NCBI GenBank assembly: GCA_963705295.1
Contig: OY970065.1
Location: 1,984,001-2,048,000, forward strand
DNA from: Parachlamydiales bacterium
Lineage (GTDB): Bacteria; Chlamydiota; Chlamydiia; Chlamydiales; Rhabdochlamydiaceae
DNA: 64,000 bases
Reading direction: 5' to 3'
Within the stretch, counting starts at the first letter, position 1. Every line of letters starts with the position of its first letter. Both the position numbers and the translations under genes were made by a program. This document shows positions 52,040 to 52,137 of the stretch, in pieces. Below the pieces are notes generated by a model, which saw only the letters and a program-made list of their open reading frames with translations, was not told the origin of the DNA and did no database searches.

Positions 52040-52137
52040 AACCACCGAGCACACCGAGACCACCGAGGCGGCTTCGCCGCTAAGAAACAAGAATATCTTC
52101 CTGCATTTTCTCGGTGCTCTCGGTGTGCTCGGTGGTT
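52040..52137. repeat. Palindromic element with 3x CACCGAG arms between cdsV and copN
   Basis: 28-bp arms 52040-52067 / 52110-52137 with 1 mismatch; internal GCGGC-TTC-GCCGC hairpin at 52068-52080. Confidence 0.92.

Follow-up and report, generated by a model that had tools for sequence, protein, structure and literature searches.

What is a long and regular palindrome doing between two genes of a type III secretion operon: did it arise there as a regulator of its neighbours, or did it come from elsewhere? The question is raised by a window of 64,000 nt (positions 1,984,001 to 2,048,000 of contig OY970065.1, assembly GCA_963705295.1) from a Parachlamydiales bacterium of the family Rhabdochlamydiaceae, in which a hairpin made of CACCGAG heptamers separates the export-gate gene sctV/cdsV from copN, the gene for the SctW-type gatekeeper. 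The element belongs to a family of repeats dispersed in the genome; this family is linked to the gene of a nuclease-fold protein, and the type of its arms matches the clade of that protein. The cdsV-copN copy itself is a lineage-specific insertion that begins 2 nt beyond the stop codon of cdsV. In the reading that best accounts for these observations, to which we assign a probability of roughly 70%, the palindrome represents a cassette bounded by hairpin arms, in a copy that lacks the gene; in full form, the cassette carries a gene for a GxxExxY protein of the PD-(D/E)XK fold. Such a copy would resemble a miniature inverted-repeat transposable element (MITE) or a REPIN, i.e., a hairpin formed by two repetitive extragenic palindromic (REP) sequences. 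The cdsV-copN element has the look of a selfish insertion and not of a regulator built for the purpose, and would be carried as a passenger of the secretion operon.

The cdsV gene (49896-52025, forward strand; FHIPEP, 751.9 bits) ends with a TGA at 52023-52025, and copN (52161-53342, forward strand), which matches HrpJ and T3SS_CopN_3rd, follows after a spacer of 135 nt. The initial annotation of this DNA had named both genes and had described a pair of 28-bp arms with one mismatch, each composed of three CACCGAG heptamers at a 9-bp period, together with a GCGGC-TTC-GCCGC mini-hairpin; all of this is borne out, as is the distance of 23 nt between the end of the palindrome (52137) and the copN ATG (52161). 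On the forward strand, the left arm (52040-52067) consists of AACC and three CACCGAG units starting at 52043, 52052 and 52061, while the right arm (52110-52137) consists of three complementary CTCGGTG units, starting at 52110, 52119 and 52128, and a final GTT. The two 28-nt arms are 96% complementary and lie 42 nt apart. The asymmetric core between them begins with the mini-hairpin (52068-52080) and continues (52081-52109) with a second small hairpin, of the family form GCA-AGRA...TYCT-TGC, and then with the conserved sequence TGCATTTT (52102-52109), directly beside the right arm. Pairing exceeds the coordinates first described: positions 52027-52033 of an outer left extension, ATTAGGATTTAAA (52027-52039, forward strand), pair with 52143-52149 in the fold, and an outer right extension, AAAATTCTTAAT (52138-52149, forward strand), is delimited by the fold and the family alignment, so that the whole element spans about 52027-52149. 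The TAGGA(A)TTTT prefix of the left extension also adjoins other gene-less copies as well as gene-bearing cassettes (loci L039 and L077). The predicted fold of the RNA of 52026-52165 has an energy of -66.4 kcal/mol (z = -9.0), equalled by none of 200 shuffled sequences, and CACCGAG-N2-CACCGAG occurs four times in the window against 0.01 expected, a count reached in none of 100 shuffles. A chance origin of the palindrome is rejected on these controls on pattern count and RNA fold.

The genome searched (a single contig of 2,131,910 bases, 43.8% G+C), chlamydial by its secretion-system genes and its relatives, contains 12 CACCGAG array loci, 18 CAGGAT loci and 6 ATCGTT loci, with none of any type in the reversed genome; the CACCGAG control pattern read backwards does not occur in the genome either. 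The suggestion in the initial annotation of a diversified system with several sequence types is thereby upheld, and the genome-wide search for inverted CACCGAG pairs that it had proposed finds that the element is not unique. The 12 CACCGAG loci comprise nine full gene-less hairpins, one half element (genome position 1878144), one solo arm (1225198) and one gene-bearing copy. The full hairpins start at 833465, 881306, 954168, 1125285, 1357524, 1538545, 1591053, 1693619 and 2036040, the last being the cdsV-copN element, and copies differ in having 2 to 5 units in each arm. Over the 36 pairs that can be formed from the nine full copies, mean identity is 0.91 and 0.90 in the two arms, 0.75 in the core, and 0.52 and 0.54 in the 40-nt flanks. 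An oriented core, with a GCGGC-TYC-GCCGC mini-hairpin, the second small hairpin, and TGCATTTT by the other arm, is common to eight of the nine. The copy at 1125285 lacks this core and was left out of the consensus fold, which for the other eight retains the long stem and both mini-hairpins. The first mini-hairpin pairs in all eight aligned copies, and changes on both sides are found at 3 of the 37 pairs of the consensus fold, two of them exchanges between AU and GC in the second mini-hairpin. All nine full copies are intergenic, as judged from predicted open reading frames (ORFs; ATG-started, at least 90 aa) and not from an annotation, and each has the 3′ end of a predicted gene 7-39 nt away on at least one side; six copies occupy co-directional junctions and two lie between convergent genes. 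CACCGAG elements are also found nested within outer CACAGAG-type arms, at 1693565-1693750 and 1878095-1878234, which suggests that one hairpin type inserts into, or forms composites with, another.

The link to a protein is provided by the gene-bearing copy (1224675-1225166), in which 35-nt arms with one mismatch enclose an intact ORF of 136 aa (1224721-1225131). Its product is a GxxExxY protein, matching TIGR04256 with 158.4 bits (cut-off 35) and PF13366 (PDDEXK_3) with 152.7 bits. In an alignment of 16 chlamydial homologues, the acidic and lysine positions that a PD-(D/E)XK site should contain are conserved, E22, D62 and K74 in every sequence and E72 in nearly every one. The AlphaFold2 model built from this alignment is confident (pLDDT 94.6) and shows a nuclease-like fold, for which Foldseek gives as nearest folds Cas4 (4ic1, E 2.9e-3) and then Hjc, lambda exonuclease and XisH, all of them weak matches and none at E <= 0.001; no solved relative was found by sequence, and PADLOC returned weak Cas4 matches and nothing else. 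The nuclease gene is the sole gene found between such arms. Because the cdsV-copN copy holds a 42-nt non-coding core without a GxxExxY gene, and a sister copy with like arms does hold one, the former is a gene-less derivative and not a full cassette. Two further GxxExxY genes are present in the same genome: one (1327219-1327452) is truncated and lies inside CACAGAG-type arms, and the other (498610-498966), which belongs to a second clade, termed B, directly adjoins a palindrome of the CAGGAT family. At 1225139-1225226, an unpartnered, outward-facing left arm lies some 20-35 nt past the right arm of the gene-bearing cassette, and an arm of the same kind is found downstream of locus L041 in another chlamydial genome (G040); this layout suggests a neighbouring cassette that is stacked or truncated. 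PMC3424549 lists PF13366 as of unknown function, with multiple transfers between bacterial divisions and archaea, and PMC8934634 only mentions the GxxExxY domain, beside a reverse transcriptase. Literature searches, from which subscription journals were largely absent, returned no description of a cassette combining GxxExxY with heptamer arms, and a search for CACAGAG/CTCTGTG gave nothing relevant among the papers listed.

A search of 41 chlamydial genomes for TIGR04256 gave matches in 14, the present one included. Thirty loci were fetched, and the flanks of 25 were analysed by means of a fixed pattern count, L050, L051, L052, L061 and L065 being omitted as short fragments or weak matches. CNCNGAG-type arrays are found on either flank at 14 of the 17 loci of clade A, and on both flanks at 8, with no CAGGAT-type array at any; the four loci of clade B have no CNCNGAG-type array, and CAGGAT-type arrays lie on either flank at all four and on both at two; clade C, also with four loci, has CNCNGAG-type arrays at one, on both flanks, and no CAGGAT-type array, these counts being descriptive and not a test, since the genomes are kin and several loci come from one genome. 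From the pattern in clades A and B it follows that the CACCGAG and CAGGAT families, which share one grammar, are the arm types of two GxxExxY clades. Their likeness of design had been pointed out in the initial annotation and is confirmed by the CAGGAT-family copy of the window (58157-58267, forward strand), which has 48-nt arms and an embedded CGCC-TTCG-GCGG mini-hairpin. Its placement is like that of the cdsV-copN element: it overlaps the stop codon (58160-58162) of the ORF at 56615-58162, and 29 nt separate its end from the following ATG (58297).

Among 40 relatives searched, CACCGAG arrays occur in two genomes alone, G016 and G030. The latter belongs to another family; an exact CACCGAG-N2-CACCGAG array lies 24 nt 3′ of the gene in three of its eight GxxExxY matches, and it also carries gene-less hairpins with TGCATTTT beside the arm. 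A third genome (G034) has 67 TIGR04256 matches, many of which are repeated 3′ gene fragments, dozens of them identical. GxxExxY cassettes also occur inside larger repeated blocks, as seen from upstream sequence shared by four G034 loci (L045, L054, L062, L067), and a metagenome-assembled genome (MAG) of Waddliaceae contains six identical gene-bearing copies (L086-L090, L092), each embedded in the same block of 1263 nt or more. Evidently, cassettes can hitch-hike on repeats resembling insertion sequences (IS). The six identical copies were considered as a source for the exact ends of the cassette and for a target duplication and proved uninformative, the copies being inside the larger block.

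The association between arms and gene extends beyond the Chlamydiota. A scan of species-representative genomes with the GxxExxY protein of the present genome gave 574 relatives, and the best 80 of these loci, which were used here, belong to MAGs whose labels include Chloroflexota, Acidobacteriota, Planctomycetota, Bacteroidota, Proteobacteria and Verrucomicrobiota; one MAG is labelled archaeal. At 76 loci both flanks were of sufficient length, and for these an array was defined as two units of [AG]CN[AG]AG in the expected orientation. Such arrays are present upstream of the gene at 59 loci, downstream at 68, on both sides at 56 and on either side at 71, as compared with 4/69 and 2/69 in distal control flanks located 380-550 nt away. 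Arrays in the wrong orientation are found at 15/76 and 18/76 loci and probably stem from stacked neighbours. At 45 of the 76 loci, the best inverted repeat between the 200-nt flanks scores at least 36 and exceeds all 30 shuffles. After removal of five of the six identical MAG copies, 119 arms with arrays define a common grammar: ACC precedes the first unit in 74 arms, and the period is 8, 9 or 10 nt in 56, 39 and 23 arms, respectively. The AACC plus three CACCGAG units of the cdsV-copN element fit this grammar exactly, in both arms. The exact core-plus-arm pattern gave one further match among species representatives, a gene-less hairpin (L164) in a Planctomycetaceae MAG, whose arms mix CACAGAG, CGCCGAG and CACCGAG types and which has TGCATTTT beside the right arm, as in the chlamydial copies.

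These data bear on whether the element could be an ordinary MITE or REP sequence moved by a conventional transposase, either of the DDE type or of the HUH type represented by RAYTs (REP-associated tyrosine transposases), the GxxExxY gene being a passenger or frequent neighbour. Arrays that track this gene across phyla, and across its own clades, are not expected of a passenger, and no gene but that of the nuclease was found between the arms. The terminal inverted arms, the many dispersed intergenic copies and the variable number of units would all suit a conventional transposase, as would the location of some GxxExxY cassettes, including those with shared flanks in G034, inside larger IS-like repeats. 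However, the genome has no intact Y1/RAYT gene: its PF01797 match at 631488 is a fragment that covers 54 of 121 profile positions (68-121), is interrupted by an internal TGA and lies far from any copy. Moreover, no target-site duplication was found, and the arms are devoid of the GTAG/CGTC tags named in PMC3733652. This explanation is therefore considered very unlikely.

Did the element arise in the cdsV-copN junction or arrive there? The ends of cdsV were compared in 29 relatives (30 loci with the present one). A copN homologue lies within the locus downstream of cdsV in 15 of them, and none was found in the other 14. The spacers of these 15, whose lengths are approximate as they were measured to the first in-frame ATG, are 8-20 nt long in ten cases and 40 nt in one, the remaining four being of 137, 297, 436 and 1267 nt. 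The comparison of orthologous spacers had been proposed in the initial annotation; the element is absent from all 15 junctions, and no CACCGAG array was found anywhere in the genomes of these 15 relatives. Within its own spacer, the 123-nt element (52027-52149) leaves 1 + 11 nt, a remnant that agrees with the usual spacer length, and the other junctions of the operon are tight as well, with 15 nt between sctU and sctV and an overlap between copN and the chaperone gene that follows. As most of these relatives have short spacers and the element fills all but 12 nt of the present one, the copy is a lineage-specific insertion. Homology with the 137-nt spacer of a relative of the same genus (G003) was considered and rejected, as no convincing alignment was obtained and the G003 hairpin is weaker and different. 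Other long palindromes or hairpin clusters are found right after the cdsV stop in four loci of the same genus or family (L014, L018, L024, L029), and insertions or rearrangements seem to have recurred at this end of cdsV.

This history also bears on the proposal, made in the initial annotation, that the element tunes export-gate versus gatekeeper expression. The notion of a diversified system stood; tuning gained no support and is unlikely to be what the element is for. In favour of a device that regulates cdsV relative to copN through RNA processing or attenuation, the hairpin lies exactly between the two genes, with the arm 14 nt and the outer stem 2 nt past the stop codon. Yet the same element is found at 11 other, unrelated loci, convergent gene ends included, and is missing from the 15 orthologous junctions, most of them 8-20 nt long. 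The mini-hairpin side faces the upstream gene in four of the five orientable co-directional copies, but this split is not significant. In E. coli, REP hairpins near stop codons can reduce expression of the upstream gene and stabilise the upstream mRNA. The present stem is very stable and its length is plausible for RNase III, which the genome encodes (256.8 bits, cut-off 166.25). No terminator-like site was found on either strand of 52026-52160, the stem being followed by TAAAATTCTTAAT with no T-run, so the element is not an intrinsic terminator, and no sigma-70-like promoter match was found in the spacer. No Rfam family reached its gathering score; two sub-threshold matches were to miRNA hairpins, with 29.7 bits (gathering 98) and 22.5 bits (gathering 200). 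Finally, in W. chondrophila WSU 86-1044, according to Table S1 of PMC7760296, expression falls from sctV to sctW (logCPM, the log of counts per million, 9.65 vs. 7.68, not length-normalised) across an annotated gap of just 26 nt. Because this gap is too short for the element, a coverage step alone would not implicate the hairpin. On balance, a regulatory device is regarded as quite unlikely.

A side effect of the insertion on the operon mRNA is possible. Once transcribed, the element would form the 28-bp stem with two small inner hairpins, and this stem may serve as a substrate of RNase III or as a block to 3′ exonucleases. RNA processing is possible since a 28-bp stem and an RNase III gene are both present; cleavage of the stem or protection of the 3′ end of the upstream mRNA is plausible. 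The tight coupling of cdsV and copN would be replaced by a structured 135-nt spacer, and close coupling of the two genes has likely been lost.

The RNA fold invites a further explanation, namely that the arms act in RNA. The cassette would then behave like an intervening sequence, an RNase III cut releasing or silencing the enclosed mRNA, and the gene-less copies would be decayed, harmless cassettes. The compensatory changes in the inner hairpin agree with this, and the architecture resembles, by analogy, that of intervening sequences in 23S rRNA that hold a small ORF. The variable spacers between heptamers also pair in some copies (AT:AT in two, AG:CT in two), although they are mismatched in three of nine. 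What such an explanation leaves unaccounted for is the spread of 12 copies with a shared gene-less core to unrelated sites, as well as the tracking of clades by arm type and the cross-phylum ACC/GGT ends, and it is judged unlikely.

If the palindrome is instead a gene-less copy of a nuclease-bearing cassette, as favoured here, the phased heptamers would be putative binding sites of the cognate GxxExxY nuclease. By analogy with RAYTs and REPINs, the nuclease might act through these heptamers to maintain or spread both gene-bearing and gene-less copies. In its most general form, this model holds that GxxExxY nucleases and phased-heptamer arms make up a previously undescribed, cross-phylum class of enzyme-plus-repeat systems. 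Each clade would recognise its own word, of the CNCNGAG or CAGGAT type, and would spread or maintain gene-bearing cassettes and gene-less hairpins; the hairpins would settle past stop codons and reshape operon junctions, including that between export gate and gatekeeper. This general form is tentative, its chances being somewhat short of even.

Several points weigh against the favoured reading. Neither a target-site duplication nor a clean empty site was found for the CACCGAG family, and no direct repeat is evident in the flank alignment. Nuclease activity, DNA binding and mobility have not been demonstrated for any GxxExxY protein, and the six identical MAG copies, being in a larger repeat, are silent on movement of the cassette itself. 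The gene-less core is no simple deletion product of the gene-bearing copy, and gene-less copies differ by about 10-25%, which gives no sign of very recent spread. Arms of this kind are mostly missing from clade C (present at one of four loci), and related genomes are non-independent samples. The association between arms and gene could instead reflect a preference of the gene for landing in pre-existing hairpins, and all effects at the RNA level are inferred.

A far larger palindromic family of the same genome, whose arms begin with TTATTAACCCGAGAGGTCAAAAGGTGACAA and whose copies measure 160-190 bp overall (e.g., 686812-686973 and 399240-399425), supplies dozens of the 147 inverted repeats found in the genome. 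It appears to be the 160-bp palindromic family marked by TTATTAACCC, a group separate from the CACCGAG family. In the window, ATCGTT units at an 8-9-nt period and TTATACCTAC units form two more small palindromes (14583-14650 and 13139-13201), and no cognate GxxExxY gene was found for either unit. The secretion operon includes sctU (48810-49880; Bac_export_2) upstream of sctV and a CesT-family chaperone gene (53342-53797) that overlaps the copN stop codon. Immediately 5′ of sctU and co-directional with it lies a gene for an ankyrin-repeat protein of 626 aa (46887-48767), which might be a candidate effector attached to the operon.

How does this family compare with known repeats? The REP/REPIN-RAYT systems of proteobacteria likewise consist of scattered intergenic hairpin repeats that lie chiefly at the 3′ ends of genes and within operons; one enzyme gene, or a small number, is bordered by inverted copies of the repeats, and many copies have no gene. 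The CACCGAG family, with 12 loci and nine full intergenic copies, agrees with REP/REPIN in being made of many dispersed extragenic palindromic repeats, and departs from these systems in that its enzyme is a small protein of the PD-(D/E)XK fold (PF13366) and not a Y1 HUH transposase. Its arms are made of 2-5 phased heptamers after ACC, whereas a REP is a single repeat with a GTAG/CGTC tag, and the mobility of the heptamer-arm cassette is putative. The named MITE-type elements Correia, RUP, BOX and ERIC are also non-coding sequences of about 100-160 bp; they too end in inverted sequences, occur in many copies, are transcribed together with adjacent genes and may contain RNase III sites. The present family has inverted ends but has yielded neither a transposase-bearing parent IS nor a target-site duplication, and its sole gene-bearing relative encodes a nuclease-fold protein. 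To our knowledge, neither the phased-heptamer design nor the cross-phylum tie to one nuclease family is a feature of Correia, RUP, BOX or ERIC.

Intervening sequences of 23S rRNA appear similar in holding a small ORF, or none, within long inverted repeats whose pairing gives a stem of the RNase III type, but the present element lies in an mRNA spacer and not in rRNA. The known ORF family of these intervening sequences encodes a four-helix-bundle protein and not GxxExxY. Rickettsia palindromic elements are palindromic repeats of obligate intracellular bacteria too, and the arms of the present element contain no stop codon in any of the six frames, with a 9-nt period that preserves the frame; in contrast to these elements and to the 160-bp palindromic family of the same genome, all nine full CACCGAG copies are intergenic and their sequence family is different.

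In the present case, the type III secretion operon of an obligate intracellular bacterium harbours a gene-less copy, a single genome has two arm families that correspond to two nuclease clades, and the gene-less core is conserved and structured. A normally tight junction of a secretion operon tolerates a structured insertion of 123 nt, which makes the effect of the hairpin on operon mRNA directly testable. If the nuclease does act on the heptamer arms, this would provide a function for the large PF13366 family, listed as of unknown function, and would explain why several palindrome families of one grammar coexist in a single genome. In that case, nuclease and arms would constitute a second enzyme-plus-repeat partnership besides REPIN/RAYT, built on a different enzyme fold and spanning many bacterial phyla, one MAG labelled archaeal, and the obligate intracellular chlamydiae.
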